A stretch of DNA of 63,146 nucleotides, filler included, from Nemertoderma westbladi (Eukaryota > Animalia > Xenacoelomorpha), in assembly GCA_032718475.1 (NCBI GenBank). It is 4 parts of 4 records of this genome, joined end to end, with 100 filler letters (N's around TTAATTAATTAA, not from the genome) between each part and the next. Parts side by side here need not be neighbours in the genome. Positions count along the whole stretch, not along the records: positions 1 to 25,879 come from JAUCBJ010002276.1; 3 more parts are not named here. One strand, given 5' to 3'. This document shows, one piece after another, positions 330 through 57,174 of the stretch (its first letter is position 1; each line of letters begins with the position of its first letter). The translations under genes and the position numbers were made by a program. The notes under the pieces are model-generated. The model saw nothing but the letters and a program-made list of their open reading frames with translations. It searched no databases and was not told the origin of the DNA.

Positions 330-945
330 TGTGACGGGATCAAGGGATCCCGATTTATCCGGTTGTTTGTTTACGCGTCCCCGCCGTGTGTAAAAGGAGT
401 TATTGTAGTTCTTCCGATGTTATTGATAGTATATGTCAGTATGTATATGATATATGAAATAATGAGATAACTGAGTTAGCACAATTGATGATGGTAATAG
501 GCCTAAGTATACAGCAACTGATGGATGATGGTGGCGACGACGGTAACAAAGTCACCGTCCTGCCCTAAACTGCACTGAGATAACTGAGTGAAATGACACA
601 AAGACTGGTGATAGTTTGTTGTTCCAACGTTCTTAATAATATAGGCTAGATAAATATGTGATAGCATATAGACATGAGATAACTGCACTGAGATAACCGG
701 TAATATAGGTGACGGCGGTGACGGTCTTAACTGTCACCGTACTGCCATGACTGTACTGGGTAAACTGAATGAATGACACGGTTACCGGTAATATATATAT
801 TGCACCGTTGACCATATTGCTCACATATATGGCCATATCCGCTTATTGGAGTGATACAAGGTTGATTGGTAATCAACCTTGTAGTTCCAATATTGCTTAA
901 CGCCAACTTTATGGGGTTAGTGAGGCGGAATTGAATACGCTCACA
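330..945 (-). repeat. 3' LTR of copy A
   Basis: TGTGACGGG...GCTCACA; about 330-825 nearly identical to 8320-8815; adjacent to the purine tract on the minus strand. Confidence 0.92.
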
Positions 946-954
946 CTCCCCCCC
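946..954 (-). other. Polypurine tract of copy A
   Basis: Minus strand GGGGGGGAG abuts the 3' LTR; same arrangement at 15023-15033 in copy B. Confidence 0.85.
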
Positions 955-1423
955 ATGCTATCTTCCCGGTGAGAAGATAGCATCAACCACTAAGTGCGCT
1001 ACAATTCCGCTGGAAACTCGATCTACTATCGGGTGTGGGGTGGAGTTATTTTCTTGGAGTCGGCTTTCCAGGCCGCTCCCTATGGGTATGATAACGCTAC
1101 CCATCTGACGTCTCGTGTCGAGCCAATTGTGGACTCTCACACAATTTTAAAAGCTCTCCACTATAACTCTAATCTCTCACTCTAACTCCGCTCTTACTCT
1201 CTCCCCACTCTAACTCTCTCCCCACACCTGAATCGCACTCTAACTTCTCTCTCGCCAACAGCTCTTCTCACTATCTCCTCTCTACTCTCTGCCACTCCCT
1301 AAGGCCCTAATCTCTAATGCTACCCCTGTGCTATCATACTATCTACCTACTACTTACTTGCTAACTATCTAACTCTCCTACTCTCTACTAACTCTCCGAC
1401 TCTAACTAGCTCTACTAAGTCTA

Positions 1424-3389
1424 CTACTACTACTACTAGGTCGATCGAACTCGGACAGTGGAAATGAGATCCTTCCAGGCTTCCCGATTCTCCATAGTTG
1501 TCGCAATTTCGTTTCTCCTAAGTTCAGTATCCCTTTCAAGTTGATCTATATATGTTATGGCAGGTCGTCCACGACTACGCTTTCCATGAGTTGGTTGCCA
1601 GAAAAGTAGATCTGGTATGACCTCGTCTTTACTTCGCCAGCAGTGCCCACTGAATCTTAATCTGCGTTCACGGAGGGTGGTTGATACAGGTGGTATTGTA
1701 CCATAAAGCTCGGCGTTTGTCATGTGTTGTCTCCAGCTGATGTTTAGGGCTGCCGTTAGTAGTCTTGTGTAGCAACCATCAATTCGTTGTTCAAGTGATT
1801 TAGTCAGTGTCCAGGTCTCACTCCCATATAAAAATACACTTTCCACTGTGGCTCGAAAGAACTTAGTCTTCAGGTGCCTGGAGAGATCCGATTTCCAGAT
1901 GGTATCCATTTTTGATAGAGCTACCCAAGCCTTTGCTTTCCTCTCTTCTATGTCCTTTTTCTACTCTCTATCCATGATCCAAGGTACTGGAAGTCATCGA
2001 CCTTCCTTAGTTGATTATTATCAATGGTTGTCAAGTTTCCATCAACATTAAAGGTCATGAATTCAGTCTTTGTAGAATTTATATGCAATCCAACCTCCTT
2101 AGCAGCCCTCTCCACTTTATTTACTAGAAGCTGTGCATCTGATAGGGTATTAGAGAGCAGGGCGATGTCATCCGCAAAGTCGGTGTCTGTGACTGTAATT
2201 GCCGGATATCTACTATTTCTGCGTTCTTGAAGTGTGAATCCCAGGTCTTCACCCTTTGTGGCCGTCCTCATTGCGTAATCCAGCACAATTACAAATAGTA
2301 ATGGTGCTAATGTGTCACCTTGCAGTACGCCAGCCAGGATTGAGAAAAACTCAGTTTCACCATCCGGTGAGAGTACCTGCGCTTCTGTGTCACAATATAA
2401 CAATCCAATGCCAGCAACAATTACTTCTGGTATTCCATAAGCTCTTAGGATTTCAAGCATTTTACCTCTATGAATGGAGTCGAATGCCTTCTTGAAGTCC
2501 ACAAAAGTCATGACAGCGGGGAGATTCTTTGACTTAATTCCTTCAATCAGTCTCCGTAGTGCAAGTATCTGAGCTATTGTTGATCTACTTGGTCGAAATC
2601 CGTTTTGGATCTTACGCAGTAGTTTCTCTATGTGAGGCCTAATCCTATATAGAATCATTTTATTGTATATTTTGGCAGCTACCACAAGCAGACAGATCCC
2701 ACGATAGTTCGTTGGTATGCCGAGGTCTCCTTTCTTGGGGAGAGGCTTTAGTTGACCTTTAGTCCAAATTGGTGGTGGCTTTTCCCCTTTTAACATCCGG
2801 TTGCAAACATTCAATAATGGTCTGTTTAGCACTCCGGTTTTCCATACCTCTGCTGGGATTTCATCTAATCCACTCGCTTTATTATTGGACATGTTTTTAA
2901 TGCTTCTTTGGAGTTCGGCAGGTGTGAAGTCCCCTGTTTCTATAGGTAGTGTCTTGTCATGTATTTTCTTTGTAGGGCTGACCTCGATGTTTGGTGGCTT
3001 CCCAAGCAAGTTGCTGAAGTGATTTTTCCACTTCCCAACACGTTCTTCAGGACTATCGGCTTATAGGCGCCCCTTTGCACAACTTTTCCGACCAGATACC
3101 TCATTTACAGTTTGCCAGGTAAGTCTTGATTGTTGCTGTATGTGAGCAGTTGAAATTGCTTCAGTTTTATCCTGTATATACTTTTCCTGGCTGATGTTGT
3201 AGGCCAATTTAAGATCGTCCTTAGCTTTCTCAACCTTGTTAATGTTTTCGGTTGTTGGTTGTTCGGTTTTAACTTTGTAGGTTATCTTAAGATCTTCTCT
3301 CTTACAAGTAACCTCATAGTTTTGCCATGGCACATATTGTTTTCGTTTGGGTTTCTGGGGGATATGCCTCTTAGCTGATTCCTTTTGGG
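1424..3389 (-). mobile_element. 5'-truncated RTE-clade LINE nested in copy A (RT pseudogene)
   Basis: ORFs 3061-3333, 1948-3009 (QNGFR, DFKKAFDS, GVLQGDTLAP, FADD) and 1436-1909 (LYGSETW, RRLRFSGHCWR); (TAG)n tail directly after the stop; 12-bp TSD CTACTAAGTCTA at 1412-1423 and 3390-3401. Confidence 0.92.
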
Positions 3390-4508
3390 CTACTAAGTCT
3401 AACTAACTCCTACTAACTCTCTACTTCTACTAACTCTCTCTAACTCTTACCAACTCTTCTATCTACGTGGCGCTTAGGGTGCCCACAACCCCTCTGCTAC
3501 TACCTCTATCTTGCTACTATCTCTAACTCTACTAACTCTACTTGACTCCTCTAAGTCTACCAACTCTCTAGCCCTTTAACTAGAACTCTTTAACTCTACC
3601 CACTCTTCTAACTACGTGGCGCTTGCGGTTCCCACAACCACTCTACTATCTGGCACCCATGTGCCCGTCTCTACTACTCTACTACCTGGCATCCTATGTG
3701 CCCTCTCTACTACTCTACTACCTGGCACCCTATGTGCCCTCTCTACTACTCTACTACCTCTAACTCTCTAACTCTACTACCTGGCACCCTATGTGCCCGT
3801 CTCTACTATTCTACTCTATCTACATCTTACCCCCTTTACGTCTCCTCGCCTGCACGTGACGCTCTGAGTGCCGGCAGAGTGGGTACGTTAATTATGTGAA
3901 CTACTACTAACTCTTACTAACTCTACTAACTCTCTACTAACTCAACTAATTCTACTACTAAATCTTACTAACTCAACTAACTCTACTACTAACTCTTACT
4001 AACTCAACTAACTCTACTACTAATTTCTTGTGCCCGGCACCTCTTGTGGCCGGCACCCACCCTAATTAACATACCCTGCTCTTACATCAAACACGTCATC
4101 ACGCGCGTGCCCCACTTAGTTCAACGCATCCCCTGTATCATGGCGCTTCCAGTGCCCACAACCTCTCTACTACTAACTCTAACTACGTGGCGCTTGCGGT
4201 GCCCACAACCACTCTACCACTACTTCCATCTATGTGGCGCTTCCGGTGCCCACAACCTCTCTCTGCTCTACTAACTCTACTACCTCTATCTACGTGGCGC
4301 TTTCGGTGCCCACAACCACTCTACTACCCGCCGACTTCTAATCTAACTGTACTAACTTCCTAACTACTACTTAATTTCTGACTTTCTATTTATTTTATTA
4401 TTTAATTATTTTTATTATTTATTTTAATTAAATAATTATTTTTGCGTGGGAAGGGCGTCTCACCCTCATTCCCACCCCCTCAGTCCAAAACATTGGACGA
4501 CTAAAACT

Positions 4509-5780
4509 CTAAGGTGCCCCTTCTTCCAGTAGGCACTCTCCTACTGCCCTCTTATACGTCCTCTTACTCTTCTCCACACTTTCTTCACCAATTCCAACTG
4601 ACCAGGAATTGGTTCTCCCTCTTCCGCCACCCTAAAATCGGGTCTCTCCGCCGCCTTCTTAACTTCCTCGCCTCTTGGCATCAAAATGCTACCTCTCAAC
4701 TTGTCGATCGGCGGTATAATGCCGCCCCTGTTTTCATCCTTAATCTTAGATACTGCCTCTGCTGGCCCCCTTAGTATATGCGCTGGCTTTAAAGGCCTCG
4801 ACGATCCCCGTTTGTTCTTCGGTATACACAACGTCTGCCCATGTAATGCCCCTTCGCACTCTGTCAGTCCCTCGTGCGTATGCAACACGCCTCCTACTTT
4901 CCTGACTCCTTTATTATGTCCACCCACGGGCCTCTCTGCCCCTGGTCTAATCCTCTCACATCCTCTCCCTTTCCATCTTGTCTTCTTACTCGACCTCCCC
5001 CTTGTCGGTATGCCTCTCAACCGGACCGGCGTCTATTCCGGACACTCCTCTGGACTATTGTCCTCCTGACACTCCACCGAACGCTCCTCCGGTTTGTCCT
5101 CCGGACATCTCGCCGTCCGCTCCCCTCCATCTCCATACCGACACTTGTTGGGATATCCATTCTCTCCCACCCACTCTCTAACTGTTACTTCCTCAGGTTG
5201 TACTTTTCTCTTCTTTCTTGCCACTGTCATGCTTATAGCCATTGTTTGGCCTCCAGTCTCAGACTCTCTAGCTGCTGTGTTCTACACTCTCCGGATCTGT
5301 GTCCTTCTACCACACATCGATGACATAGTCCATTTGTGTCTGTGTAGGCTATACGATCTTGTTTGGGCAACGCTTGCCAGTGCTTACAACTCATGGTCTT
5401 ATGGGTTCCGTCCCGATGTAATTGACATTCGAATCCTGGATTATAGCGTTTCCTGTATAGTCCTTCACGTATCGCGCGTAGGTTTATATCTACCGATTTA
5501 GTGTTTTGGTTGTCTGTACTCGGCCTACTGGGTATACTGGGATTGTGTTTATATGTGGTGTTATTTTCTTTCTGTCCCTGCCACGGTGTGGTCCTACTAC
5601 CAGCTAACTGTGGGCTTGTAGCCCCCTGTATGGCCGCGTGTGGTAGCGACTGTCCGCACAACCTGTTCTTGTCCAAGGGGTTCGATGTTCTTGCTCCTAT
5701 TGGGGTATATTGTTGATATTGTGATGGGGGAATGTAATCTTCGCGAATCTCGATTCTCCGCGCGACTACCACACTCTCGA
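4509..5780 (-). pseudogene. Degenerate gag-end, protease-start and integrase-C-terminal remnants of copy A
   Basis: CKHWQALPKQDRIAYTDTNGLCHRCVVEGHRSGEC resembles copy B CSYWQASPREDQVKYAARNDICSRCVMSGHRARQC; LTECEGALHGQTL...LKPAHIL resembles LAKCEGIINSRPL...LTPSHFL; both end in EGAP-stop. Confidence 0.75.
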
Positions 5781-6178
5781 TCGGCAGCTATATCCCGTCT
5801 GGAAGCTTCTCTTCGATCCCCACTGCTGTTCTCGACTTCGTATCGGTACGTCATGTACCCCTCTCTTGGTGTGCGGTGCGTTTCTCCGGGGCGACGGCAA
5901 CTAACTCCATCTCTACTATCGACGGCTCGCTATCCGTCCTCGCTCTCCAGTTGCTTCTAGCAACGACTCTTCTATTATCTTTGCTTCTTCTTTTTTCGAC
6001 CTCTCGGTTAAACTCTACTAATCTTCTCTCTTCTGACTGGGCTCGACGTTCCGTCGCCCGCCCTCTCACGACGTCGACCTGTCTCTCTCTGCTCGACCGC
6101 ACGCCGCTGGGGATACTCGCAATCCCCCTATTATTCTCCATCGCCGGGTGTTGCGGTTTACCTAATTCGGCCCGCGCA

Positions 6179-7864
6179 TTATCCGCCGACGCCTGTGGGA
6201 CACTCTCTGCCCTCCCCCCCCCCCCCCTTCTCGCCACTAATCTCTCGTGGTGGGGCGCCCGTAGCCCCTCCCCCCCACCTGCCGCATCTAACTTCACTAT
6301 CTCTTACTACGATTTTGCGTCCCTCTTGTCGGACACTCTCTACCCCCCCTCTCTCGCCACTAATCTTCCGTGGTGGGGCGCCCGTAGCCCCCCCCCCCCC
6401 CCCCCCCCACTCGCCACATCTAACTTCACTATCTCTTACTCCACTTCTACACCCCTCTCTAGTCGACGCACTGTCTCTACTGCGGTTGGGTCTATTCACC
6501 CCCGCCTCTCTCTCCACTACTGCATGGCCTATCAGGCCCCCCTCGGGTTGACTTAACCCCGCCACCTCCTGCCTACTAACTACGTGGCCTACCAGGCCGC
6601 ACCCTTTGGGTTGGCTCAACCCCGCCATTTCCTGCCTACTAACTACGTGGCCTACCAGGCCCCCGTTGGGGTTTCTCGCCCCCGCCACTCTCTGCGCACT
6701 AACTGCGTGGCCTGCCAGGCCCCCGTTGGGGTTATGCACGTCCGACACGTTCATATTAATAGCACCATTCCCAATATTATCTGTTAGATCAATTAAATCC
6801 CCAAAATCAATTAAATCATTAGAATTTGAAACGGGATTATTATTTAAATTATTATTATTTTCTAAATTTAAATTATTATTCGAATTATTTTGCGCGTTTG
6901 AATTGAAATTATTATTTAGATTATTTGTATTTAAATTTAAATTACTACTACCAGGTAAAATATTTCCTGTAATAAAGGGATTAGGGTTATCTACTACGGT
7001 ACTATTAATACCAACATTTCCTAACGTACTTCTACTACCCCCCCCCCCCCCCCCCCCCCCCCCGCCCGTACAGCTACACCAGTTCTGGTTCTCTCGCCCG
7101 GTGCCTGTAAGTGGGGTCTCACTCTCTGATAGTCCCAACTGCGCCAGTTCTAGTCGGCGCTGATTCAGTTTGGCTTGATATTGCGCAAGCCTCCCTAGCC
7201 GGGCATGCAAATCATCCCGCACGCGTCTACCCTCTATCTCTCTCTCTCGCATACTCTGCTCGGTCAACTCTGCCCCTCTCGCAACCATCTCAAACCGCCT
7301 TGCCAGCTCGCTCTCTACTCTCATCTCCCGCTCTCTACACTCCTCAGCTCTCTCTCCACACTCCTCGGCTCTCTCTCTATACTCCCTTGCCAACTCTCCT
7401 AACCTCTCTAATAATGCGGTTTCCTCTCTCAATTGTCTCTCTAATTCGTTCTGATCTAGCGCCGCACCTCTCAATTTATACGCCAGATTTATCTCCCGCA
7501 CCCTTCTTTCTTTTGCGGAGGATGTAGCAGACTTATCTGTTGCTACAAACTCCCGCCGCCCCTCCGTCCCACTAACTTTCCCCCGCCTCCCGGAACTTCC
7601 TCCGACCAACAAGACCGAATCCTCGGGGTTAACCTCGGATTCACCCTCCTGCGGTCTCCTCCAACCCACTAATTTTACTCCCCGGGCATCGACTGAGTAT
7701 GGCCCTATGTACACTACACTAGGCTGCATACCCCTACACTCCCATAGTTCAAACAGTTCGCTGGCAACCCCTCTCGCTCTCTCGCTGGCTAGTTCTGCCT
7801 GCCCAAAACGCTTTAAATGGTCAAAATATCTGTTCGACTCACCTAGCTGCCTCTTCAACTTCAC
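6179..7864 (-). CDS. Gag-like N-terminal ORF of copy A (coiled-coil, Asn-rich, short repeats); continues after a frameshift in 5851-6297
   Basis: Homologous to copy C ORF 57175-57939 (LFELWECRGM.P.VVYIGPY) and copy B ORF 24654-25733; start codon uncertain. Confidence 0.65.
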   Translation of the reverse strand: MKLKRQLGESNRYFDHLKRFGQAELASERARGVASELFELWECRGMQPSVVYIGPYSVDARGVKLVGWRRPQEGESEVNPEDSVLLVGGSSGRRGKVSGTEGRREFVATDKSATSSAKERRVREINLAYKLRGAALDQNELERQLREETALLERLGELAREYRERAEECGERAEECREREMRVESELARRFEMVARGAELTEQSMREREIEGRRVRDDLHARLGRLAQYQAKLNQRRLELAQLGLSESETPLTGTGRENQNWCSCTGGGGGGGGGGSRSTLGNVGINSTVVDNPNPFITGNILPGSSNLNLNTNNLNNNFNSNAQNNSNNNLNLENNNNLNNNPVSNSNDLIDFGDLIDLTDNIGNGAINMNVSDVHNPNGGLAGHAVSAQRVAGARNPNGGLVGHVVSRQEMAGLSQPKGCGLVGHVVSRQEVAGLSQPEGGLIGHAVVEREAGVNRPNRSRDSASTREGCRSGVRDSEVRCGEWGGGGGGATGAPPRKISGERGGVESVRQEGRKIVVRDSEVRCGRWGGGATGAPPREISGEKGGGGEGRECPTGVGG

Positions 7865-8319
7865 CTGGTCTATCTCGGCCCCTCCTTTCGCTTATCTTAA
7901 CTGCTCCCGGGTCGCGGCGTAGGCTTGTCGGAGCCGGTCTCTGACCCCGACGTCCTCGTCGCTGACATCTCATCTATCCCTCCGGGTCCGGCGTCGTACC
8001 GGCGGCCCCACCGTCGCCATTCCGGTGGGCCGTCCATCGCCCTCGGCCTGTGGCTGGCCGGCAACATCGGTATGTCGACCGCCGTCTTACGTCGACTCGT
8101 CTCTCCCTTCTCGTTGTAGACGGCCCCCCTTCTCTTGGATTGCCGGATCGCTCGTAGTCGACGGATCTAGCGTCGTGGGTCGATACCGTCTCGCCATGCC
8201 CTCGCGGATTGTTAGGTTGTCATCCGGGGTCCGCAGTGGTGTCGTCTCTCTCCCTTGACTCATCTTTACTCTGTCGGTGGCTAGCAGTCACAGTCTCAGG
8301 CAACTTGGGTGTTTGTTAC

Positions 8320-9067
8320 TGTGACGGGAACAAGGGATCCCGATTTATCCGGTTGTTTGTTTACGCGTCCCCGCCGTGTGTAAAAGGAGTTATTGTAGTT
8401 CTTCCGATGTTATTGATAGTATATGTCAGTATGTATATGATATATGAGATAATGAGATAACTGAGTTGGCACAATTGATGATAGTAATAGGCCTAAGTAT
8501 ACAGCAGTACTGATGGATGATGGTGGCGACGACGGTAACAAAGTCACCGTCCTGCCCTAAACTGCACTGAGATAACTGAGTAAAATGACACAAAGACTGG
8601 TAATAGTTCGTTGTTCCAACGTTCTTAATAATATAGGCTAGATAAATATGTGATAGCATATAGACATGAGATAACTGCACTGAGATAACCGGTAATATAG
8701 GTGACGGTGGTGATGGTCTTAACTGTCACCGTACTGCCGTGACTGTACTGGGTAAACTGAATAAATGACACGGTTACCGGTAATATATATATTGCACCGT
8801 TGGCCATATTGCTCACTCAGTCGATGCTTGCCCCCCATTGGCTGATAAACTAATTGTCGCCCTTTCACCTCCCTTGGAGTGTTTCCCCTCGGTGCTGTTA
8901 TTCCCTCTCTCTCAGGGGTGTAACCCCTATTGTGTGTGTGTTCTCTGGGGTTTCTCCGTCCCACTTTGTTGGGGTGACACGAGGTTGATTGATAGTCACC
9001 CTCGTGTTCCCCAATATTGCTTAAGGCTCACTTTATGGGGTGGTTAGCGGAATTGAATAAGCTAACA
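8320..9067 (-). repeat. 5' LTR of copy A
   Basis: TGTGACGGG...GCTAACA, followed by TSD ATTTA; on the minus strand a TATA-like run (about 8782-8792) lies upstream of an Inr-like TCAGTT. Confidence 0.92.
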
Positions 9068-9322
9068 ATTTAGATTAAATAATAATACAGCAAATAAGTA
9101 AGCTTACACAAATAATCACTTTTGTAAAACAATAATTTATTTCATTCATCATTTACTAAACTGATAAACACACACCTCAGGTTGTAGTGAATATTACTGT
9201 AGTATTAATTTTAATAATATTGATGTCTTTGACCGCATACCTAAACACACACATCTCCACCTACCGGATGGATAGGGAATGAATGAACTCCTACCAACAG
9301 TCTGCCTATCAATGCTGATTAA

Positions 9323-10479: not shown

Positions 10480-12693
10480 TTAATTGGTATCTTTGTGAAC
10501 TGAGTGTTTGTGTGTCTTTAGATTCCCTTTTTGACTAAATTGTTTGTCACAATAAACGCATTTATACATGATACCTTTATGTACTGATTCCATGTGGGTT
10601 CTTAGATTTCCTTTTTGAATAAATTGTTTGTCACAAGAACCACAATTATGCTTGATACCTATATGTACTGATTCTATGTGTTTCTTCAGATTCCCTTTGA
10701 CACTAAATTGTTTGTCACAAGAACCGCAATTATACTTGATACCTTTATGTACTGATTCTATGTGTTTCTTTAGAACTCCTTTGTCACAAAATTGTTTGTC
10801 ACAAGAACCACAATTATACTTGATACCTTTATGTACTGATTCTATGTGTTTCTTCAGATTCCCTTTGACACTAAATTGTTTGTCACAAGAACCGCAATTA
10901 TACTTGATACCTTTATGTACTGATTCTATGTGTTTCTTTAGAACTCCTTTGTCACAAAATTGTTTGTCACAAGAACCACAATTATACTTGATACCTTTAT
11001 GTACTGATTCTATGTGTTTCTTCAGATTTCCTTTGTCACTGAATTGTTTGTCACAAGAACCGCAATTATACTTGATACCTTTATGTACTGATTCTATGTG
11101 TTTCTTTAGAACTCCTTTGTCACAAAATTGTTTGTCACAAGAACCGCAGTTATACTTGATACCTTTATGTACTGATTCCATGTGTTTCTTCAGATTCCCT
11201 TTGACACTAAATTGTTTGTCACAAGAACCGCAATTATACTTGATACCTTTATGTACTGATTCTATGTGTTTCTTTAGAACTCCTTTGTCACAAAATTGTT
11301 TGTCACAAGAACCACAATTATACTTGATACCTTTATGTACTGATTCTATGTGTTTCTTCAGATTTCCTTTGTCACTAAATTGTTTGTCACAAGAACCACA
11401 ATTATACTTGATACCTTTATGTACTGATTTTATGTGTTTCTTTAGAACTCCTTTGTCACTAAATTGTTTGTCACAAGAACCACAATTATACTTGATACCT
11501 TTATGTACTGATTCCATGTGTTTCTTAAGATTCTGTTTGCCACTAAATTGTTTGTCACAAGAACCACAATTATACTTGATACTTTTATGTACAGATTCCA
11601 TGTGTTTCTTAAGATTCTGTTTGTCACTAAATTGTTTGTCACAAGAACCACAATTATACTTGATGCCTTTATGTACTGATTCCATGTGTTTATTCAGATA
11701 TGCTTTGTCACTAAATTGTTTGTCACAAGAACCGCAATTATACTTGATACCTTTATGTACTGATTCCATGTGTTTCTTAAGATTCTGTTTGTCACTAAAT
11801 TGTTTGTCACAAGAACCACAATTATACTTGATGCCTTTATGTACTGATTCCATGTGTTTATTCAGATATGCTTTGTCACTAAATTGTTTGTCACAAGAGC
11901 CGCAATTATACTTGATACCTTTATGTACTGATTCCATGTGTTTCTTTAGATTTCCTTTCTGTGTGAACAATTTATTGCAATAAACGCATTTATACTTGAT
12001 ACATTTGTGAATTGATTCCACGTGTCTCTTCATAATCCATTTATTTCTAAATGGTTTGTCACATGACCCACAATTATACTTGATACCTTTATGCAATGAT
12101 TGTTTACGATTCTTTAAATTTACTTTGCGATTAATTCGCTTACACTTGAGAACGGATTTAGCAATAACTTCACAAGGAGATGGATTCCCAATACAGAAAT
12201 CTTGTCTTACAACTCGAAATTTATCTTCGGAAGTACCACAAATAGCTCCCGCTTCTGATTTAAATCTGATAACGTTTATACCGCTGTTTGTGTTGCCGAT
12301 TTGATTATTAGAATATTGTTCATCTGTACAGAAATCTTGTTTGATCTTTCGAGATTTACCTTCGGAAGTACCGCAAATAGATTCCGATTTAAAACTGATA
12401 ACGTTTATACCGCTGTTTGTGTTACCGATTTGTTTATTAGAATATTGTTCATCCGTACAGAACTCTTGTTTGATCTTTCGAGATTTATCTTCGGAAGTAC
12501 CGAAAATAGCTCCCGTTTCTGATTCAAAACTGATAACGTTTATACCGCTGTTTGTGTTGCTGATTTCGTTATTAACAGTTGGTGGAGTGACGCATTTCTC
12601 TTGTTCCTCCTCACCGGACTGAGAATCACTTTCATCTGCCATGATACGATCCAGTAAATCCCAAGCAGCGTCGCTCAAAGTATTTGAAGACAT
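10480..12693 (-). CDS. Tandem C2H2 zinc-finger protein with 19 fingers
   Basis: 737-aa ORF; 19 x 28-aa (84-bp) units CxxC-x12-Hx4H; N-terminus has about three 40-aa repeats. Confidence 0.92.
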   Translation of the reverse strand: MSSNTLSDAAWDLLDRIMADESDSQSGEEEQEKCVTPPTVNNEISNTNSGINVISFESETGAIFGTSEDKSRKIKQEFCTDEQYSNKQIGNTNSGINVISFKSESICGTSEGKSRKIKQDFCTDEQYSNNQIGNTNSGINVIRFKSEAGAICGTSEDKFRVVRQDFCIGNPSPCEVIAKSVLKCKRINRKVNLKNRKQSLHKGIKYNCGSCDKPFRNKWIMKRHVESIHKCIKYKCVYCNKLFTQKGNLKKHMESVHKGIKYNCGSCDKQFSDKAYLNKHMESVHKGIKYNCGSCDKQFSDKQNLKKHMESVHKGIKYNCGSCDKQFSDKAYLNKHMESVHKGIKYNCGSCDKQFSDKQNLKKHMESVHKSIKYNCGSCDKQFSGKQNLKKHMESVHKGIKYNCGSCDKQFSDKGVLKKHIKSVHKGIKYNCGSCDKQFSDKGNLKKHIESVHKGIKYNCGSCDKQFCDKGVLKKHIESVHKGIKYNCGSCDKQFSVKGNLKKHMESVHKGIKYNCGSCDKQFCDKGVLKKHIESVHKGIKYNCGSCDKQFSDKGNLKKHIESVHKGIKYNCGSCDKQFCDKGVLKKHIESVHKGIKYNCGSCDKQFSVKGNLKKHIESVHKGIKYNCGSCDKQFCDKGVLKKHIESVHKGIKYNCGSCDKQFSVKGNLKKHIESVHIGIKHNCGSCDKQFIQKGNLRTHMESVHKGIMYKCVYCDKQFSQKGNLKTHKHSVHKDTN

Positions 12694-14486
12694 ATTTAAT
12701 ACAATTCGGACTAACTGAAGTATAAATGTGACAGTCTAAATATTACCAATATAATTCAATTTAATGACACAAACTTCAACACTTTAATACATTCTGGGTT
12801 TGGCTGACTGTAATACCGAATGCAGCAGCTACAGTGCTTAGGGGAGTGGAGCGCCTTTAGAAGTGAACGTAGGAATATAATTGGGTACCTAAATTAGATC
12901 CAAATACAATAGATGTAACAGATGCACCGGTTGCTACTAAGAACATTTGGGCCTCTATCCCTACCAACATCGATGGGTAACTCTGCGAGTTTGATTCGGG
13001 GAATACTGGAACTTTACAATGAAAGGTTTGCGGCCTCGTCACTGTAGAAAATCGTAACAGAGGTTGTTTAACAATACCTCGCTACATTAGTTAGCGCCAA
13101 TTATTTATCATGGAACCAATTATCTATGTATTGTAGTTACGATGGTCCCCAACGGTCATCGTTTTAACTACGTAATATCCATCTATTGGAAGTATTTTCG
13201 GTGAATTTATGACGAATAAATTACCTTGTCGTCGACCCGCGGATGAGAATTACGTTTTTGACAATTCCGTTGTTGGATTTAATTTATTACGGGAGATCCG
13301 CGCCCAACCCATAAGCTAAACAAGGGTCTACAATTCTTTTGTGACAGGCGAAAATGTCCCGCCACCCCCGCATATTTTGACCGGGGGGGGGGGGGGGGGG
13401 GGTGCAAAATCCAACATAATTGCATAACATTTTGACCCCCAAGGACCAAATCTGCTACCAGATATTGTCCTTTCGTACAGATTTTGTCCGCCTTGAATCT
13501 AATGGAAACTAATATCTAGATTGATGAATAATCAGTCTTCCTTCACGAATTCTCTATGAGATTAAGAAGGTATATTAGAGAATCAATCATCGGTATATAA
13601 TGCTGACCAATTCAGTAGGTTAAACTATCAGTCTCCGAAGATTTACAACAGTTAATAAAAAATGTTAGGATTATATGTATAAAAGGAAGGCGGGTTTTCT
13701 AACCAAAACAATAAACGATATTGTTACCTAAGGAGGGAAAGGAACAGATTGCAGTGGGGGACTTTTCTAACCATAACAATAAACGATATTGTTACAAATT
13801 GAGGGAATGTTTACTAAATCGTAAGAACCTATGTTCCTAAATATTAATGTTCAACTGATACCTTCATCTCCATCAATAACGTTCCTTTCAATCGGACAAA
13901 TGGACATAAGAAAACCCACTCAATAATTATACAAATATTAGCAGCAACATCTCAAGCATTTCATAAAAGCGGCTGGACCACTCGATGGTATAACGTGGAT
14001 ACAGTAGCAGTGGCATGGAAAGCAACAGCACTACCATCAATCTTACACAAAGTAAAGTTCATGATTGGTAACCTCGGCCAAACTGATTTAAATATTATAT
14101 TTTTTAAATATTATTATATATTGATATTATAGAAAAATATTACGAGGATTATTAAATGTAGGATCATATTTTAGTAATCTAACAGGCACCAGAGATCTCA
14201 GCACAGAAATATACAGGGACATTATGTATCTGGACTGTCAGCCAGATAGTCTACCAACAGTTAAGGGCTTCAAATAATTTCCGACTATCTAAATAGGATT
14301 ACTTAAATTCGAAATAATCAAAGTTAATATCAGCATTAAAATATAATATCAAAATTATACTATCTGGCGGTGCTGGCGGTGGAGGCAGTGCTGGCGGTGC
14401 TGGCGCACCGCGAAAGAAACTCTCAATAGCTTCAGCGCGACTGTCCAATTGTCCACGTCTTCGTTCAAGGTTCACACAAAATATTT

Positions 14487-15022
14487 TGTGACGGGATCCA
14501 GGAAGGATCCCGGTTTATCCGGTTGTTTAGTTCACGCGTCCCCGCCGTGTGTGAAAGGTAAAAGATTTCCTGTCGTTCGTCGTATATAATAATCGGTATA
14601 TAAAATAGATATAGATATAGTGATAGATTGTTGTACACGGAAGGCGGGTTGACGGTAATTAAGTCCCGGCACTTCCCTAACTAAACCTACTAACCTAGCT
14701 AGCACCAATATGATACTGAGATAACTGAAATGGTACGATTACTGCTAACAGGTTATATCGCACGGGTGGCCTTATTGCTGTACTCATTCGGTGCCTTTCC
14801 CCCCTCTGATTGGTTGATACCCCTGTTGGCGCCCTCTGGAGTGTTCCCCTTCACTCCACCTATTCTCTCTCTGTTAGGGGTTTGGCCCCTGACCCTCATT
14901 GGGTGCTTCTCCTTCCCACTTTGTTGGGGTGACACGAGTTGGTTACTACCCAACCTCGTGGCCCCCAATATTGCTTATCGGCTTAACTTTATGGGGTGTT
15001 AGCGGGATTGAATAAGCTAACA
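14487..15022 (-). repeat. 3' LTR of copy B
   Basis: TGTGACGGGATC...GAATAAGCTAACA, homologous to the copy A and C LTRs. Confidence 0.9.
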
Positions 15023-15725: not shown

Positions 15726-18287
15726 TCAGTCCATCCCTCCTGACCTTGGGAACCCTTCTGTCCCCCTCGAGATGGCTCCCTCCCTGGGTCGCTTCCTGGT
15801 TACTATTGCTCCCCTGGGATCTGCCTTGTGTCTTCGGACTCTCGCCGCCACTTCCTTACTAATCCCGGTGGTTGGCTCCTTGGGTGCCGGTGTTATAAGC
15901 TCCCGGTACCGCTTCGCGGGCGGCCCCTCCGAATGGCCCTGTTGTCTCCCCCTAGTGGCGTCCCATAAAATCGTCTTCATAGCCCGCGGCACATGCTCCG
16001 CCAAGAAATCCCTAAACTCTCCTCTGTTTTGTGGTGTCCACCTATCTAAATACCTCTGCGTATTTATCACCCCGGCAAATGATGCCGCCGTCGCCACTTC
16101 CTGGTAGGTAAACGGAAGTCTCCGTTTGATAATCTCCATGTGGGCCTCCTGATTGATTAGGAAGAAACCCCACTTAAACTCCTGGGCCTTCATACGTTGC
16201 CGAGTCATCGCCCCGACGTCGGCCCATTCTTCGAAGATCATAAACTTCTCTTCGTCGTCCATCCAGTCGCACTGGCGTCCGTAATGTCCCCGAAAGTTAC
16301 ATTTCGAACATCGGTTGTGCAACCGTGGACACGCCCCCATCCTGTGGTTCGACTCTCGGCAGTAGAGACAATAAGTTCCCTTCTGGAACCGATACAAGCA
16401 GTTCTTTTCCTGGTGGGTCTGTCTCCCACAGTAGTCGCAACCGAGTATCAATGTCTCCCGCCCTACATCGTCTTTCGTCCCTAGCGATCTCCGCGGTCTA
16501 TGGAGTCGCTGGTAGGCGAACTTTTGGACGTTAGTGTCCCTGTCTACGTCGATCTCCTCGCTCCTCCCGGGCATCGTCTCCCCAAACACTACCCGTGGTG
16601 CCGTCCCCGGTTGTTCGCCCAACCTGATGGTGCTCCCCGCGAAATCCATTGCCGGTTCCTCGTGCACCCAGGCCCGCTTGCCGGGTTTATTCCAGAAGGC
16701 CCTCGCCCCGCTGGCCGTCACCACTCTCCCGCCAACCCAGTCCGTGTCCGAGTGGCCTATCCTCGCAATAGGCAGCATCTCTCCGAACTCGTCGTCGTCT
16801 TCTTCCTCCTCTCGCAGTGGTTCCAACCCCGGTATCCCGGCGGATCCACTATGTCCCTTCCCGCCTTGGCTCTCGCCCGTAGCTCTCCATCCCTCTAGCT
16901 CCCCAAACTTCCTTAGTGGTTTGTCGCCCTCGGCGCCCGCTGGTATGGGCATCGTTTGCAACCCCAACGTCGACTGTTTCGGTGATCCCACCGTCCACCC
17001 CAACTCTCGCCATAGAGACTCCCCCGAACTCCCTGATGACGCCCAACGAAGTTCATCTAAGGCCGCTTGTTCCTCGAAGCCGTAGCCCTGCGCCCTGGCT
17101 TCCTCCTCTCTTTCCTCTGCTTCTATCCTCTCCCTTCTAGCGACTTCTTCCAGTCGCTTCGCCTCCCGTTTATCCGTCTCTAACTGCTCCCATCTCTGAT
17201 ATGGTGTATTTATCTCCCTGTCTACCAGATGTCGGCTATTGTAGTACACCGACTCGCCCTTCAGCCCCGGGTGGTCTACCAGACCCTTGAAAGCCGTCTT
17301 AAAGGCTCTTCTGTAGCTTAGGGGTAATCCCGATAATAGGAATGCCTTTGGTTCCCTCTTGATAACCACGGTCATGAATAGGTTAAGCAAACCTATCATT
17401 ATCCAGTCCTCTTGAAGGATATATCGCTTCTGATATATCTTTATGGCTGCTCTTTGGAACTGATACACCTCTTGTTTTCCTGGCCTCGCTCCCCACTTCA
17501 GCGAGTTTGCTAGCTCTGCTCCGTACTCTTCTCTGAACTTCCCCCAGTCCGTCGGTTTGTGACATACGAGCCTTAACAACTGGCCCATCGCCACCGCTCC
17601 GCACTGGCCCGTGTTCCTCACTAGTCCCAACCCGTCTGGCACTGTCATAGCCATGAAGACTGTCTGCGTGTCCAGAAGGTTGGGGGTGTCCGGACCGACG
17701 ATCCTCTCCGCGTCGTCGCAAATCGCCAATCCCACCTTCGTCGTCGACTTCTCTCTTACCAAGACTTGCACCGCTTTCGGCAACCGGTTCAACTTCGGCC
17801 CTTCCTTGTTCCCATACGTTCCTAGATCGAATAGGAAAATGTCCCCATTTGGCGCGGCCAAATGTAGGAGTATGGTCCTGGTCGACCCCGCTGATCCTCG
17901 TTTCGAACCCCCCTCGTCTTCCACGGTTCCCTCGTCGTCTAGGATCATATATCCTCCCCTGCTGACGGACTCTACGAACCTCTTCCAATCTTTCTTCGGC
18001 GATTCCCTCGCGTACTTTGGAATCCCGAATTTCTCCTCGTCCCCCTTTACTACGTAGTGGAAGTGCCCGAAGATTGCATTATCCAGCGACGGCGTCCCGT
18101 AGGTCCCGACCAGCCGCTGTTTGTGCGCTTCCCTGAAATGGTCTTGTAGCGGTCGCGCTGCGTGACCCCTCTCCAACCGCTTGTAGTATCCCCTTGTCTT
18201 ATCTTCCGGATGTCTCTTGGTGAAATCCACCAGTATCTCCTTTCCTCCTGACTCTGCCTTTCTCTTTCTGATCAGCTTACTTGCCAT
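15726..18287 (-). CDS. Retrotransposon ORF3: DEDDy/RNase D-like 3'-5' exonuclease domain plus three CCHC zinc knuckles
   Basis: Intact 853 aa; ExoI YMILDDEG, LLHLA..IFLFDL, LP..V..L.....KVG..I.DD (ExoII), LLDTQ, WGARP...QKRYILQED (ExoIII-like); knuckles CDYCGRQTHQEKNC, CLYCRESNHRMGAC, CSKCNFRGHYGRQC. Confidence 0.78.
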   Translation of the reverse strand: MASKLIRKRKAESGGKEILVDFTKRHPEDKTRGYYKRLERGHAARPLQDHFREAHKQRLVGTYGTPSLDNAIFGHFHYVVKGDEEKFGIPKYARESPKKDWKRFVESVSRGGYMILDDEGTVEDEGGSKRGSAGSTRTILLHLAAPNGDIFLFDLGTYGNKEGPKLNRLPKAVQVLVREKSTTKVGLAICDDAERIVGPDTPNLLDTQTVFMAMTVPDGLGLVRNTGQCGAVAMGQLLRLVCHKPTDWGKFREEYGAELANSLKWGARPGKQEVYQFQRAAIKIYQKRYILQEDWIMIGLLNLFMTVVIKREPKAFLLSGLPLSYRRAFKTAFKGLVDHPGLKGESVYYNSRHLVDREINTPYQRWEQLETDKREAKRLEEVARRERIEAEEREEEARAQGYGFEEQAALDELRWASSGSSGESLWRELGWTVGSPKQSTLGLQTMPIPAGAEGDKPLRKFGELEGWRATGESQGGKGHSGSAGIPGLEPLREEEEDDDEFGEMLPIARIGHSDTDWVGGRVVTASGARAFWNKPGKRAWVHEEPAMDFAGSTIRLGEQPGTAPRVVFGETMPGRSEEIDVDRDTNVQKFAYQRLHRPRRSLGTKDDVGRETLILGCDYCGRQTHQEKNCLYRFQKGTYCLYCRESNHRMGACPRLHNRCSKCNFRGHYGRQCDWMDDEEKFMIFEEWADVGAMTRQRMKAQEFKWGFFLINQEAHMEIIKRRLPFTYQEVATAASFAGVINTQRYLDRWTPQNRGEFRDFLAEHVPRAMKTILWDATRGRQQGHSEGPPAKRYRELITPAPKEPTTGISKEVAARVRRHKADPRGAIVTRKRPREGAISRGTEGFPRSGGMD

Positions 18288-18824
18288 TCCGAACTCCGTT
18301 GCTCGCTCACCTGTAAGGTGGTGCCTTACAAAGGCGCAATACAGATGAGTGACAAGTTAAGATGGTCTGTGTTGGTTCGACAATGGCCTATTCCTTACTT
18401 AACTGCGCCTTTCAGCCTAAATTATCACAACTTAATTCTGAAGCTAGTAAATACGCCCTAATTCCGATTTCTGTCAGTTACTTTTATTATGTTCCAGAAT
18501 AACTTTCCTAGTGTTGCCACAATTTGTAACTTTCAGCCCTATTCTATTTATTTTGATTTAATTTTAATCCTACTGTCCTACTACTTACTGTTGCCTATGG
18601 ATTACCTTACTCTCTAATCCACATTCTGGCCTACTCTGTGGGCCTGTCCAGTACAGCAGTATATGTCGCATGGCCTACACAATCTATCCAACTGTACTCA
18701 TATGCCCCCCTCTCACTACTAACTGCTAACTAATATCTATATCTTTAATACCCTTCTACCTCTTGCTCTTACTAACTAGTACTGCGTACTTTCTCACTAA
18801 CTCTTACTCTCTCTTTCTAACTAA

Positions 18825-19356: not shown

Positions 19357-22300
19357 CTAAGGTGCCCCTTCTAGCAGACAGCATTTCCCTACAGCTCTCC
19401 TATAGGTTTTTCTGTCCTTCGCACCTATCTTGCCACCTATCCGCACTTCTACCGATCGGACTCTTCCGTCTTCATCGGAGTAAGTGCCTACAACTCTCGC
19501 CAACCGCCACTAGTTGTTGATGATGGTATCATCCGTAACGATCACGAGATCTCCCTCTCTTAACTCCCTATTTGACTTCCTCCACTTACTTCTTTTGTGA
19601 AGTGTGGGAAGGTATTCTTCTACCCACCTCCTCCAATACTCTGCGCTTATTGCTTTAGTGACTTTCCAACTTTGACGGGAGTGTATGTCATCTGGGTCTA
19701 CACCCCGCATATCGATGGTCGCTGGCCTTTCCATTAGGAAATGGCTAGGCGTCAGCACGTCTAGTGACTCAGGCTCATCATTCTCTGGATATAGCGGTCT
19801 ACTATTAATGATACCCTCACACTTTGCAAGCACTGTCCTCAAGATGTCCTCCTTGACCATGTGGGTGTTCATTAACTTCGACATTAGACGCTTCGAACTG
19901 CCCACCAGTCTCTCGACGCATCCTAGTGTATGTGGTGCATACGGCGTCCTTCTCTCCCACTTTACTTGTCGTCGTCTCATGGCTGCCCTGACTTCCTCCC
20001 CTTCCAAGATGTCCAAGGCATCTGCCATCTCGTTCTCTGCCCCCACAAAGTTGGTTCCGCTGTTGGAGTACATTACTTTGATCGTCCCACCTTTGCGGTC
20101 TCTGAACCTTTCCAATGCATTTATAAATGCTGATGCGGATGCATCCTGGGCGAGTTCTATCCCTACCGCCCGCGTGTTGTTACAAACAAAGATAATACCG
20201 TAGCGTTTCTCCGTGTGCCGCATCACCTTAATCTTTATCGGCCCGAACATGTCCACACCGCAATGCGTAAATGGCGGGTCGTGCTGTCTTACTCTACTCG
20301 CCGGTAGTGGTGCCATCTCCTGTGTGGCTCGTTCCTTGTTCGCCCGTCTGCAGGTCTGGCACTGCCCCACTACCGCTTTTACCTTCTTCCTCAATTGCTT
20401 GACCCAATAGGTCCTCCTTATCTCCGCGAGGGTTCGGTTGGTGCCCCCGTGCAATATCGACTTGTGGGAGTCCCAGATAATCTGGTGGAGTATTGGCGAT
20501 CCTGTGGGGATGATGATGGGTTTCGGTGGTACCACGATGCTGTTGTTGTATCCCACCCTAGAGTTCATCACTAGAATCCCGTCATCGTTAAGTTGCGGTG
20601 ACAGCGTGATCAGCTCACTGTCTCGTCGAAGGTGCTGTTGCTTACTGACGCGTTCCACTTCGTCGCCATACTTCTTCTGTTGTTCATAGCAGATGACTGC
20701 TCTAGTCGCTCCTTCCAGATCTATGGTTGTCCTGATCTTCTTGTCTTCGCCAACTCCCGCGAGGAAATTCCTGAAGGCTCTCCAGTATGCTACTAATTTC
20801 TTGGTCTTGTACCAACTAGAGCTGTAGCTGAGGAGTTTATCCATTGGGTTATCGCACAGTTCTACGGTTTTGGGTCGCACGTCCCTTATCTCCCTCACCA
20901 TCTGGGAGTATATCTCTTCTCCCTCCGAATCTCCCTCTTCTCCCTCTGATACTACTTCTCCTGAGCCCGGGTCCACCTTTCTCATCGGCGGCCAGGCCTC
21001 CTTGTCGTTCAGAAATTGCGGCCCGTGTTGCCACAATACTTCCTTCTTTGAGAAAGTGTGGCGTGCCACGCCCCTTGATAACAAGTCCGCTGGGTTCTCG
21101 TCCGTTGGGCAGTAGTGCCACCTTTCTAGCTCTGTCGTCGCCCTTATTTCGTCCACTCTGTTTGCGACGAATATAGGATATCGCGTTTTCTTGTTATGTA
21201 GCCAGCCGAACACTACCATGGAGTCCGTCCAGTAGTGTGTCTCCACTATGTTGGGAATAGTGTCCATTATGTAGGCTGTGGCCCTAACTCCTAATCTCGC
21301 AGCTGTTAACTCTAATTTGGGAACTGACGCCGAATCTGGTGGCGTTGACTTTGCCTTGCTGAAGGCAAGTCTGCGTTTGTGAGACCCCTCTCGTTGTACT
21401 AAGTAGAGTGCCGCTCCATATGCCTCTAGTGACGCATCGGAGAACATGTGCAGATCCAGGTTCGTCATGTCCCCATCCGGGAAATACACTCGTGGCATGC
21501 TGTATGTTCCCATCTGCTCTAGACCTTCTGTCCACTTACACCACTGTTTCTTAATCTCTTCTGGTACCTCTTCGTCCCACTCATCTTTCAGCTTGTATAC
21601 TCTCTTGAGTATCTGTTTCCCCGTTACTAGTAGTGGGGATGCTAGGCCTAGGGGATCGTATATTCTTGCTATGTATGACACATAGCCTCTCTTTGTGTGG
21701 ATGTCTGCGCCCTCCTGGCTCAGCTGGTACTTCAGTTCGTCTGTCTCTTTGTTCCACACGATTCCCAGTGCCTTCTGTTGAGACTCTGTTCTCTTATTCG
21801 CCATGTCCTGCCCTTTGGCTGTTGTGGGATTATCCATGGTCGATTCTGGTCTCTCGTCCTCTATCGCTCTGATAAATTCCTGCGAACTGGATTGGAATTT
21901 GGTTAGGTTAAAGCCGGATCCTTTTAGGATGTCGCGAACCTCGCGCCCTGTATCCAGTATCTCTTTAACCGTATTTCCAGATTCCATTCCGTCGTCTAGG
22001 TAGAAGCCGCGTCGAATCATGTCGACGGCCCTATTACTGTATCTATCCTCCTTCCCTTTCACTGTGTCTCTTACCGCCATAGTCGTCGTGAAGGAAGACG
22101 ACTTGGCCCCCATGTTCTGTACTATCATCTTGTACATCGGTATAGTCGACGGTTCTTCGTCGCTGTTGTACCATAAGAAGCGTTGACTATCGCTATCTTC
22201 TTCCGTTACACGGACTTGGTTGAACATGCCTTCTATATCACAGGTGAAGGCGTGTTTCCCATTCCTAAATCTTAGTAGGACCTCGATCCACGAATTGTAG

Positions 22301-23535
22301 ATATTGGGACCCTCCAGTAGATAGTAGTTTAGGCATTTTCCGTTGGTTTTTGCCAACGCATCTACTACCATCCTTAGCTTACCCTTCTTTGGATCTAAAG
22401 CCACGTGGAGTGGCAGGTAATATGTCCTGTCCGTGTTTGGTTTGTCAACCGGTAACTCCACGGCCCATCCTCTCTCGACGTACTTCTTAATAGTTCTGTG
22501 GATGTACTCGTTCTTCTCGGGGCTCCGTTTTAGTGTCTGTTTCAACTTACGAAGCCTCGTGAGTACCATCCCTTTATTATCGGGTAACGGTAGCTTCGGT
22601 AGCTTCCATACAATCCCTATGGTATACCGCCACTCATCGCATGTCATGGACTCCTCTACGCTCCGTTGAGCCTGTTTGTCCTCCACCGAGGTCCCTACCC
22701 CGGTCTCCTTTAATCCCTCAAAATCTTGTTTGAGCAGTCTTTTAAGCTGCTCCTCTGCTCTCTCATCACCCATTTCCTGCATGGTTCCCGCAAACATGCA
22801 TCCTGATGTCTCCGACATCCTAAATGGTATCTTACTCTTGATTGGGCCACTCAGTGTCCACCCGAATGGTGTCAGTATCGCCACTGGGTCACACTCCCTG
22901 TCTTCACCGAAGACCGTTTGCATTCTTTCGTGGGCCATCGGGCAGTCCATTCCTACTATGATGGATACCTTCCTGACGTCCACCTCCGGGATTGAGAAGT
23001 CAATGCTGTCCAGGAATTTATATTGCTTGACCTCGATGTTGGTTGGCCGCCTGGCATTGATGTTAATAGACTCTATCACTTGGATGGGGTCGATGGTTGC
23101 CCCGTAGTCACATCCCGGTGCCACTGCTGCAATCGCGCACCGTCCAGTCCTCATCTCTAGGACCTCGTCTTTGCTAGAGATCGTTGTTACCGCCATTCTA
23201 CTTGGCCTCGTCCTCAATCCTATTTCTTCGGCCACCCAATCCTCAACTAATGTGAAGGCAGCTCCGCTATCAACCAGCATCAGTGTGGTTACCGATCGAT
23301 TGCCTTCCCCAATCACTCGCACTGGTACTACCCCAAGTAGCACCGTTCCTCTTTTCTTCGCCCCTACTGTGCTCGTTGCCATCGTTTGGCCTTTGTTTTG
23401 ACCGAATCTAATGGGGGTCTCCTTGCATTGCCTCGCTCGATGTCCACTCATCACACATCGCGAGCAGATATCATTTCTCGCCGCGTATTTCACCTGATCT
23501 TCCCTGGGTGACGCTTGCCAGTAGCTGCAGTTCAT
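19357..23535 (-). CDS. pol: BEL/Pao Pol polyprotein (protease, RT, RNase H, integrase); probably inactive
   Basis: LVDSGA; FYLDD; FSDAS, PKLEL, WTDS, NPAD; HHCC, VDMFGP, VERLV. Second integrase Asp reads SNSGTNF instead of SDNxTNF; an in-frame TAG at 19510-19512 precedes the natural end at 19357. Confidence 0.93.
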
Positions 23536-23538
23536 GGT

Positions 23539-41775: not shown

Positions 41776-41807
<32 letters not shown>

Positions 41808-56283: not shown

Positions 56284-56863
56284 TGTTAGCGAATTCAATT
56301 CCGCTAACCACCCCACAAAGTTAGCTTTAAGCAATATTGGGAGTACGAGGTTGATTGCCAATCAACCTCGTATCACCCCAATAAGCGGGGACGACGAACC
56401 CCAAAGGAACAAACAATCGGGGTCAGAGGTTCTACCTCCGAGAGAGAGAGAATGACAGTAGCAAGGGGAAAACACTCCCAGAGAGATTGGAGGGCGAGAA
56501 TTAGGTTATCAACCAATGGGGGGCAGGCATCCGCTGCGTAATATGGCCAAACCAGAGCAGTATATTACCGGTTGGTGTTCATTCATTCATTCACTCAATT
56601 AGTCAGTTCAGTTAGGGCAGAACGGTAACTCTTATCACCGTCCACTGCCGCCATCATCGATCATCATTCAACTATCTTACCGGTACTCAGTTACACTTAT
56701 CAACCAACTGTGCTTATACTTTATCTTATATATACTTATACATGCCAACAATAGTCAGAGTAACTCAATAACACCAGAACTCTTTTCACATACACACGGC
56801 GGGGACGCGTAGATAAGATAACCACACAACCAGGATAAACAGGGATTCTCGGATCCCGTCACA
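56284..56863 (+). repeat. 5' LTR of copy C
   Basis: TGTTAGCG...GGATCCCGTCACA; TATA-like near 56560, Inr-like TCATTC near 56579-56592. Confidence 0.9.
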
Positions 56864-57174
56864 GTGATAAGATACCCAAACTCTAACTGCCAGCTCAGAG
56901 ACTAAAGATGAGTCGAGAAAGAGAGACGACGCCGCCGCGGACCCCAGACGGCGATCTAACAATCCGCGAGGCCGCGACGCGACAGTACCGACCCACGACG
57001 CCGGATCTGTCGACCAAAGGCGATCCGGCAATCCAAGCGGAGGGGGGCCGTCTACAATGAGAGGACGAGTCGAGAGAGGAGAGAGACGAGTCGACACACG
57101 ACGGCGGTCGACCTGCCGATGTCGCTGGCCAGCCACAGGCCAAGGGCGACGGACGGCCCACCGGAACAGCAACG

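Follow-up and report, generated by a model that had tools for sequence, protein, structure and literature searches.

We identified in Nemertoderma westbladi a BEL/Pao-type family of LTR retrotransposons that probably primes reverse transcription with a piece of RNA from its own LTR, freed by a cut at a predicted three-way RNA junction. It is likely that the primer is element RNA, while the further step of an RNase H cut in cis, drawn by analogy with the yeast element Tf1, is somewhat favoured. The preliminary description of this DNA had proposed that the lineage primes with its own RNA, and self-priming stands as the best reading because the 5′ LTRs are not followed by a tRNA-type site, the variable sequence found in that position tracks a segment of the LTR, the duplex between the two ends at the LTR boundary, and TATA-like and initiator-like motifs lie upstream of the segment. 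That proposal was incomplete in two respects, as the primer is probably longer than the 11 nt used by Tf1 and a second partner, located within the LTR, competes for the segment.

The window, by which we mean the whole 63,146-nt stretch of DNA that was analysed, carries three related LTR elements (copies A, B and C), none of them intact. Copy A (330-9067, minus strand) is flanked by a 5-bp target duplication, ATTTA, at 325-329 and 9068-9072. Its orientation is fixed by a gag-like ORF on the minus strand (6179..7891), which is similar to the gag of copy B and 70 % identical over 187 aa to the start of the copy C gag. The 5′ LTR of copy A (8320..9067, minus strand, 748 nt) has TG...CA ends, and the 3′ LTR (330..945, minus strand, 616 nt), with a purine tract directly before it, is 97 % identical to the 5′ LTR over 497 nt, its outer part being diverged and ~130 nt shorter. 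The outer parts (843-945 and 8817-9067) share ~80 % identity, differ by 130 nt in length and have the target duplication in common; by eye, the outer part of the 5′ LTR resembles that of copy B and the outer part of the 3′ LTR that of copy C, and the differing ends reflect either recombination between subfamilies or misassembly. Most of pol is missing from copy A, and a fragment of a non-LTR reverse transcriptase, presumably RTE-like, lies inside it (1436-3402, minus strand; RVT_1, E 4e-35); a similar fragment is found at 61498-62507 (plus strand).

Copy B retains a 3′ LTR (14487..15022, minus strand), a purine tract and a pol gene (19510..23538, minus strand) encoding protease, reverse transcriptase (RT), RNase H and integrase; its 5′ LTR falls outside the window, lost at a gap. 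Copy C, which is also cut by a gap, has a 5′ LTR (56284..56863, plus strand, 580 nt) inserted in a Gypsy-like pol fragment, and copies A and C are tied to B through the similarity of their gag and LTR sequences. Three identical 100-nt spacers (Ns around TTAATTAATTAA) occur at 25880-25979, 50133-50232 and 58769-58868, copies B and C each being cut at one of them. These spacers look like artificial joins, and the pieces that neighbour each other across them may be unrelated.

By its proteins the family is of BEL/Pao type, since copy B matches the Pao-specific domains Peptidase_A17 (PF05380, E 1e-41) and DUF5641 (PF18701) and has a gag piece matching DUF1759 (PF03564). Sequence motifs of RT and RNase H were found in its pol, and the best 120 of 607 relatives of its RT-RNase H region show 32-38 % identity, with PF05380 present in every one of these 120. 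Compared with the characters of the Belpaoviridae, the TG...CA ends, 5-bp duplication and purine tract of copy A and the purine tract of copy B are as expected, as are the pol order protease-RT-RNase H-integrase and the Pao-specific domains of copy B, whereas the 18-nt site for tRNA-Arg or tRNA-Gly is absent, the leaders of A and C containing no TGG and the post-LTR site varying among contigs. A Penelope-like or tyrosine-recombinase element had been considered on account of homology extending past the 497-nt repeat, and this reading was dropped once the full LTR, the target duplication and the purine tract had been located.

Other features of the window include an uninterrupted ORF of 533 aa belonging to the CBF/Mak21 family (45956-47557, plus strand), which has no intron and which we take to be NOC4-like, with an 84-nt inverted repeat upstream of it (44552-44635 and 45682-45765). 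A long ORF encoding a C2H2 zinc-finger array, with a repeat unit of 84 nt, is present at 10480-12735 (minus strand), and tandem arrays at 28786-34102, 36361-36929, 40613-43713 and 48371-50132 have units of ~27, 22, 315 and 29 nt, respectively.

The first 12-13 nt after the LTR in copies A and C are complementary to a segment of the same element's own LTR. In copy A the candidate primer 3′ segment (8535..8548, minus strand) reads GGTG-AC-TTTGTTAC, with the predicted cut directly after it, and is complementary to the post-LTR site that occupies the primer-binding position (8308..8319, minus strand). In copy C the candidate segment (56624..56638, plus strand) reads GGTA-AC-TCTTATCAC and is complementary to the site at 56864..56876 (plus strand). 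The segment is contiguous in all four LTRs of the window, no GTRAG occurs in the 81 nt that surround it in each of the three copies, and a primer split by an intron need not be invoked. The preliminary description had given the coordinates and letters of these elements for both copies, all of which are correct, and what it had claimed of the duplex was borne out as well. Neither 5′ LTR is followed by TGG, both leaders beginning with GT and containing no TGG over the scanned lengths of 65 nt (A) and 55 nt (C); the duplex stops exactly at the LTR boundary, which is fixed by the target duplication; an AC bulge is retained in both copies; and the two sides have changed together, with the pairing reaching beyond the core helix.

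Aligned with MAFFT, the 13 pairs comprise nine that are shared, three double changes and one paired indel, with none broken. The pair involved in the indel is found only in copy C, copy A being gapped at both partner columns of the unedited alignment. As a control the partner was slid by 1-3 columns, upon which pairing fell to 19-64 %. The comparison draws on two linked LTR/post-LTR pairs, A and C, and a covariation shuffle control, which with two sequences has low power, gave 58/500; the chance of the four coinciding changes is roughly estimated at ~1e-5 to 1e-4 if independence is assumed. Against shuffled LTRs the 14-nt duplex is significant in copy C (2/300) and not in copy A (21/300), while the 30-nt duplex was equalled in 1/300 shuffles for A and 3/300 for C. 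Copying of the last bases of the primer into the site during plus-strand synthesis could yield the match of the first 8-9 pairs. Such copying would be expected to stop at the retained AC bulge, and a matched change past the bulge would need selection or another route.

In the predicted folds the 60 nt ending at the segment pair along the leader as far as the gag AUG. The upstream arm of copy A (8549..8593, minus strand) is predicted to pair with the leader at 8257-8303, through the gag AUG at 8261-8263, and that of copy C (56586..56617, plus strand) with the leader at 56881-56917, including the UG of the gag AUG at 56908-56910. The 60-nt duplex with the leader has a predicted energy of -43.7 kcal/mol in copy A (z -3.4, 3/1000 shuffles) and -37.0 kcal/mol in copy C (z -4.8, 0/1000 shuffles), and the same 60-nt stretch from the 3′ LTR of copy A gives -41.6 (z -2.8, 7/1000 shuffles); seven other LTR/leader combinations range from z -0.2 to -2.2. 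These windows were chosen after the folds had been seen, and among the 230 and 174 windows tested along the two LTRs the best-scoring ones sit at the segment site.

Besides the post-LTR site the segment has a second covarying partner, an inner copy of the site that lies within the LTR itself. In copy A (8351..8364, minus strand) it is a near-duplicate of the post-LTR site with extra bases, one after GT and one in the 4-bp part, and in copy C (56809..56823, plus strand) it carries all four of the changes that separate the post-LTR site of C from that of A. In each LTR the inner copy directly follows an invariant GGCGGGGACGC, lies 46-56 nt before the LTR end and has the extra base after GT. Compared with the segment over eight countable columns, 31 of the 32 cells pair, with two double changes and one mismatch, which is in copy B (segment 14655-14668, inner copy 14519-14535, minus strand).

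The LTR motif GGCGGGGACG (8366..8375, minus strand, in A; 14537-14546, minus strand, in B) is identical in A, B and C and forms one strand of a predicted stem whose other strand, CGTC and the bases next to it, lies immediately 3′ of the segment. This strand is at 8525..8534 (minus strand) in copy A, where it is predicted to pair with 8366-8375 with a probability of ~0.65, at 14643-14654 (minus strand) in copy B, with probabilities of 0.92-0.94, and at 56639..56652 (plus strand) in copy C, where it is predicted to pair with 56798-56807 with probabilities of 0.95-0.99. In the form of the fold that engages the post-LTR site, the stem is predicted to adjoin the segment helix directly, leaving no base unpaired on the strand of the segment. 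A small predicted hairpin near the LTR end (8326..8341, minus strand, in A) is looped out at this point, and the stem, the segment helix and the looped-out LTR end together make up a predicted three-way junction at the likely cut site.

Once the folded RNA takes in the AUG, copies A and C both have the post-LTR form as their minimum-energy fold. Blocking the post-LTR site costs 1.0 (A) or 1.6 (C) kcal/mol, and the two folds lie within ~2 kcal/mol of each other. Ensemble folds of RNA ending short of the AUG favour the inner partner, at 0.58 versus 0.41 for the post-LTR site in copy C and at 0.53 versus 0.14 in copy A, in which a local hairpin accounts for 0.32; when copy A is folded from near its first TATA, the post-LTR form reaches only 0.02. 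Folding of the region as a whole is unremarkable (z -1.23 and -0.52). The predictions thereby describe two near-equal states, and dominance of the priming state is not proved by them alone.

Motif scans place a TATA-like box at LTR position 264-281 in the 5′ LTR of A (8782..8791, minus strand, with an initiator-like TCAKT 23-31 nt downstream) and in B and C. In all three copies an initiator-like motif lies ~28-33 nt downstream of the box and upstream of the segment. Taken at face value, these motif matches would put the end of the segment 46-50 nt into the RNA in copy C and 72 nt in copy B, and in copy A either 224 nt from the first or ~52 nt from the second of two units. Both LTRs of copy A contain a 181-nt duplicated unit (8535-8790, minus strand), which provides a pair of promoter-like regions and a pair of segments; the segments differ, and only one matches the post-LTR site of this copy. 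The second, non-matching segment (8716..8730, minus strand) looks like the primer of a sibling subfamily, and a variant among the contigs described below matches it in part. None of the four LTRs contains AATAAA. Each has a conserved GATAAA 30-33 nt short of its end, which may serve as the poly(A) signal, and the R/U5 border is thus not fixed. If GATAAA is the signal, the segment, the stem and the inner copy would all be found at each end of the RNA, which is the basis for the protective role that we propose for the inner copy.

Variation within the family was examined in contigs from five of seven public runs, none of the seven being recorded as RNA, with four runs, derived from at most three samples, at the copy A junction; none of the contigs spans the 228 nt between segment and site. 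The family is abundant, as 1804 contigs in run X1, 818 in run X2 and 84 and 9 in further runs match the LTR region of copy B; contigs at the copy A junction number 116, 107, 10 and 75. Variants were recorded at post-LTR positions 3, 4, 5, 7, 9 and 10, six of the first ten, and none at positions 1-2 (GT), although a missing variant does not prove a position invariant. Variation of this kind would be hard to reconcile with a single host tRNA.

Two predictions had been set before the contigs were checked, a sibling site derived from the second segment of copy A and a site for copy B derived from its segment. For the sibling site, changes were expected at positions 3-5, and all three letters appear in run X3, two of them at a depth equal to that of a single contig (37.6) and the third, which was pooled from three contigs, at an adjacent end distance; the three changes probably share one contig. 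Position 8, at which another change was predicted, shows none among the variants listed, to which 35 indel variants are additional. For copy B, the loose end of a contig from run X4 can pair with all eight positions of the segment (one as G-U), and a 13-nt arm of the same contig fits the tract upstream of the segment in B with three G-U pairs, both matches being read by eye. A contig from run X2 (depth 886) pairs with seven of the eight positions of the segment of B as it stands in the window, is identical at eight of eight to the inner copy of B minus its extra base, and includes 9 nt that are complementary to the TTAGGGCAG tract found in A and C. At the mismatched position of B, one X4 contig over its LTR carries a different letter, which does pair. 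The loose-end matches, again judged by eye, are two of the 24 listed, there being 82 more; none of these contigs showed the precise site expected for B, and neither loose end has the predicted 4-bp second helix. The contig variation partly matches both predictions, no single contig joining a site with the segment of the same element.

A further contig from run X2 (depth 10.6), with a joint at 8320/8312, carries 27 additional letters at the LTR boundary, similar to the upstream arm, and is possibly a rearranged copy. The LTR-end pattern had no match in viral contigs or in prokaryote genomes, and the pol alignment gave no loci in viral contigs. Nine metagenome matches to the LTR-end pattern showed no blastn or tblastx similarity to the window and were taken as chance.

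Copy B has an extra ORF between pol and the purine tract (15726..18356, minus strand, 876 aa), which likely encodes a 3′-5′ exonuclease-like domain and three CCHC knuckles. The assignment is based on language-model features (Atlas score 0.94, with PF01612 on 34-60 % of the members of the top clusters) together with motifs read by eye. Pfam, PDB and sequence-homologue searches lent it no support, four representative matches covering only a stretch of 22-34 residues in repetitive proteins; tblastn found no copy of the ORF in element A, and its single-sequence fold was unusable (pLDDT 37). According to the available text of PMC5408684, the bdelloid elements Juno and Vesta carry a DEDDy exonuclease as ORF3, and the ORF of copy B would resemble it as a non-env third ORF with exonuclease features, differing in its location in a BEL/Pao-type element, its length of 876 aa and its three zinc knuckles.

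Such an ORF bears on an alternative in which element RNA primes in trans. A small RNA or short transcript from the LTR, its end placed at the AC of the segment through cutting or trimming by either a host nuclease or the exonuclease-like protein of the element, would anneal to the site of another genome. A trans-acting primer would explain the same covariation, and both the abundance of the family and the exonuclease-like features of the ORF are in keeping with it. However, A and C each match their own LTR, the stem and the three-way junction are predicted within one molecule, and the ORF itself is unsupported by Pfam, PDB or homologues and has no tblastn match in A. We therefore consider priming in trans to be unlikely.

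It is likewise improbable that the pairings represent a regulatory structure of the leader, acting in translation, packaging or dimerisation and kept matched by selection or repeat copying, with some other molecule as the primer. The predicted duplex does cover the gag AUG and the two partners are of nearly equal energy, as might be expected of such a structure, and since post-LTR site and inner copy are near-direct repeats of each other, they could change in concert without any role in priming. A different primer would nonetheless have to pair at a site that varies at six of its first ten positions, and the helix ends exactly at an LTR boundary that is fixed by the target duplication. The use of a different host tRNA half or internal tRNA fragment by each subfamily, with the LTR segment merely mirroring the site, is very improbable, for although half-tRNA priming without TGG exists in Ty1/copia lineages according to the available text of PMC6317226 and PMC10886601, it would here need several tRNA fragments, each mirrored twice in the LTR down to a paired one-base indel, and Rfam gave no matches in 8200-9100 at E values up to 5 and ARAGORN no tRNA in the window.

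Self-priming by element RNA in cis, which we favour, would proceed as follows. Transcription would start ~30 nt past the TATA-like box, with the segment ending 45-70 nt into the RNA in C and B, and the primer would probably be this 45-70-nt 5′ fragment, not the first 11 nt as in Tf1. Between the LTR boundary and the gag AUG the 5′ stretch is predicted to form a duplex with the leader, a stem between the invariant GGCGGGGACG and the bases immediately following the segment is likewise predicted, and the last 46-56 nt of the LTR would loop out. By analogy with Tf1, the RNase H of the element would cut after the final AC of the segment, or 2 nt earlier, for which the constant GT/AC leaves room. 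The cut would leave a paired 3′ end from which RT could copy the LTR end. The inner copy would form an alternative closed hairpin of near-equal energy, and at the 3′ end of the RNA, where no post-LTR partner follows, only this closed form would be available in cis and would keep that copy uncut or from competing.

Taken further, the data can be fitted to a scheme that we put forward tentatively and that is, in its entirety, rather doubtful. A BEL/Pao lineage would have independently swapped tRNA priming for a two-state RNA device, in which a capped 45-70-nt fragment clamps the leader and gag AUG and is cut at the three-way junction to become the primer. A covarying decoy would lock the segment in the 3′ repeat and toggle between translation and reverse transcription, and subfamilies would hold private primer/site/decoy codes that can be swapped by LTR recombination.

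If self-priming holds true, BEL/Pao would be the third LTR superfamily to employ it, after gypsy, in which it has been shown for Tf1, and copia, in which it has been predicted, which would imply that it either arose more than once or reflects an ancient capacity common to RT/RNase H. Elements able to do without host tRNA would also escape one means of host control, and would be overlooked by annotation tools that rely on a tRNA site. The inner copy, in turn, suggests a testable answer to a problem faced by any self-primer located in the repeated region, that of cutting the 5′ copy while sparing the 3′ copy.

BEL/Pao elements had been described beforehand as normally tRNA-primed, with no known case of self-priming among them, and the literature that we searched agrees on both counts. 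ICTV lists the replication of Belpaoviridae as tRNA-primed, from an 18-nt site for host tRNA-Arg or tRNA-Gly, and as poorly understood (PMC8742986). Our search, with most subscription papers and Repbase outside its scope, found no report of self-priming in BEL/Pao. No such mention occurs in the available text of PMC5443660, PMC6934838, PMC3601003 and PMC10886601, and that of the BEL/Pao surveys PMC3118150, PMC554778, PMC8556966 and PMC6238403 makes no mention of a PBS or tRNA and has none of the primer-related terms looked for; two motifs of the family were absent from nine supplements of PMC3118150 in their available form, in which long files may be incomplete. The present family shares with the Belpaoviridae of ICTV the LTRs, purine tract, gag and pol and the same domain order, and differs from them in showing no 18-nt tRNA site.

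In Tf1 the site at which the primer binds is complementary to 5′ RNA derived from the LTR of the same element, and a cut has been proposed at the end of the duplex, as given in the available text of PMC7175516, PMC4600332 and PMC5341516. A site of this kind is what the present family has in common with Tf1 and Tf2 of Schizosaccharomyces pombe, Tj1 of S. japonicus and the Tf1/sushi group. So far as that text describes them, the primer of Tf1 is the first 11 nt of the RNA, compared with a predicted 45-70 nt here, and the bulged 12-13-bp end helix with predicted arms reaching the AUG sets the present family apart, as does the inner duplicate of the site, of which the same text makes no mention for the Tf1 group. 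Tf1/sushi elements have a Ty3/gypsy chromovirus-type pol and the present family a Pao-type pol, so it is not a member of that group. A larger RNA structure around U5 is reportedly also needed in Tf1, to go by the titles of work by Lin and Levin from 1997 and 1998.

Outside yeast, the available text of PMC6317226 gives self-priming as predicted for the plant elements Tcn1 (gypsy) and TAR/Houba/Osr-1 (copia), where, as here, it was deduced from LTR complementarity; these elements are not BEL/Pao, and three-way covariation is not described for them in that text. Fungal GalEa copia elements, with their Conserved Hairpin Site, resemble the present family in having no tRNA site after the 5′ LTR, but according to the available text of PMC5445492 their hairpin is situated downstream of the LTR, in which a complementary sequence was not found, whereas here the partner lies inside the LTR. 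The feature described here is real, and it likely works like that of Tf1 and departs from the ICTV description of its own family.
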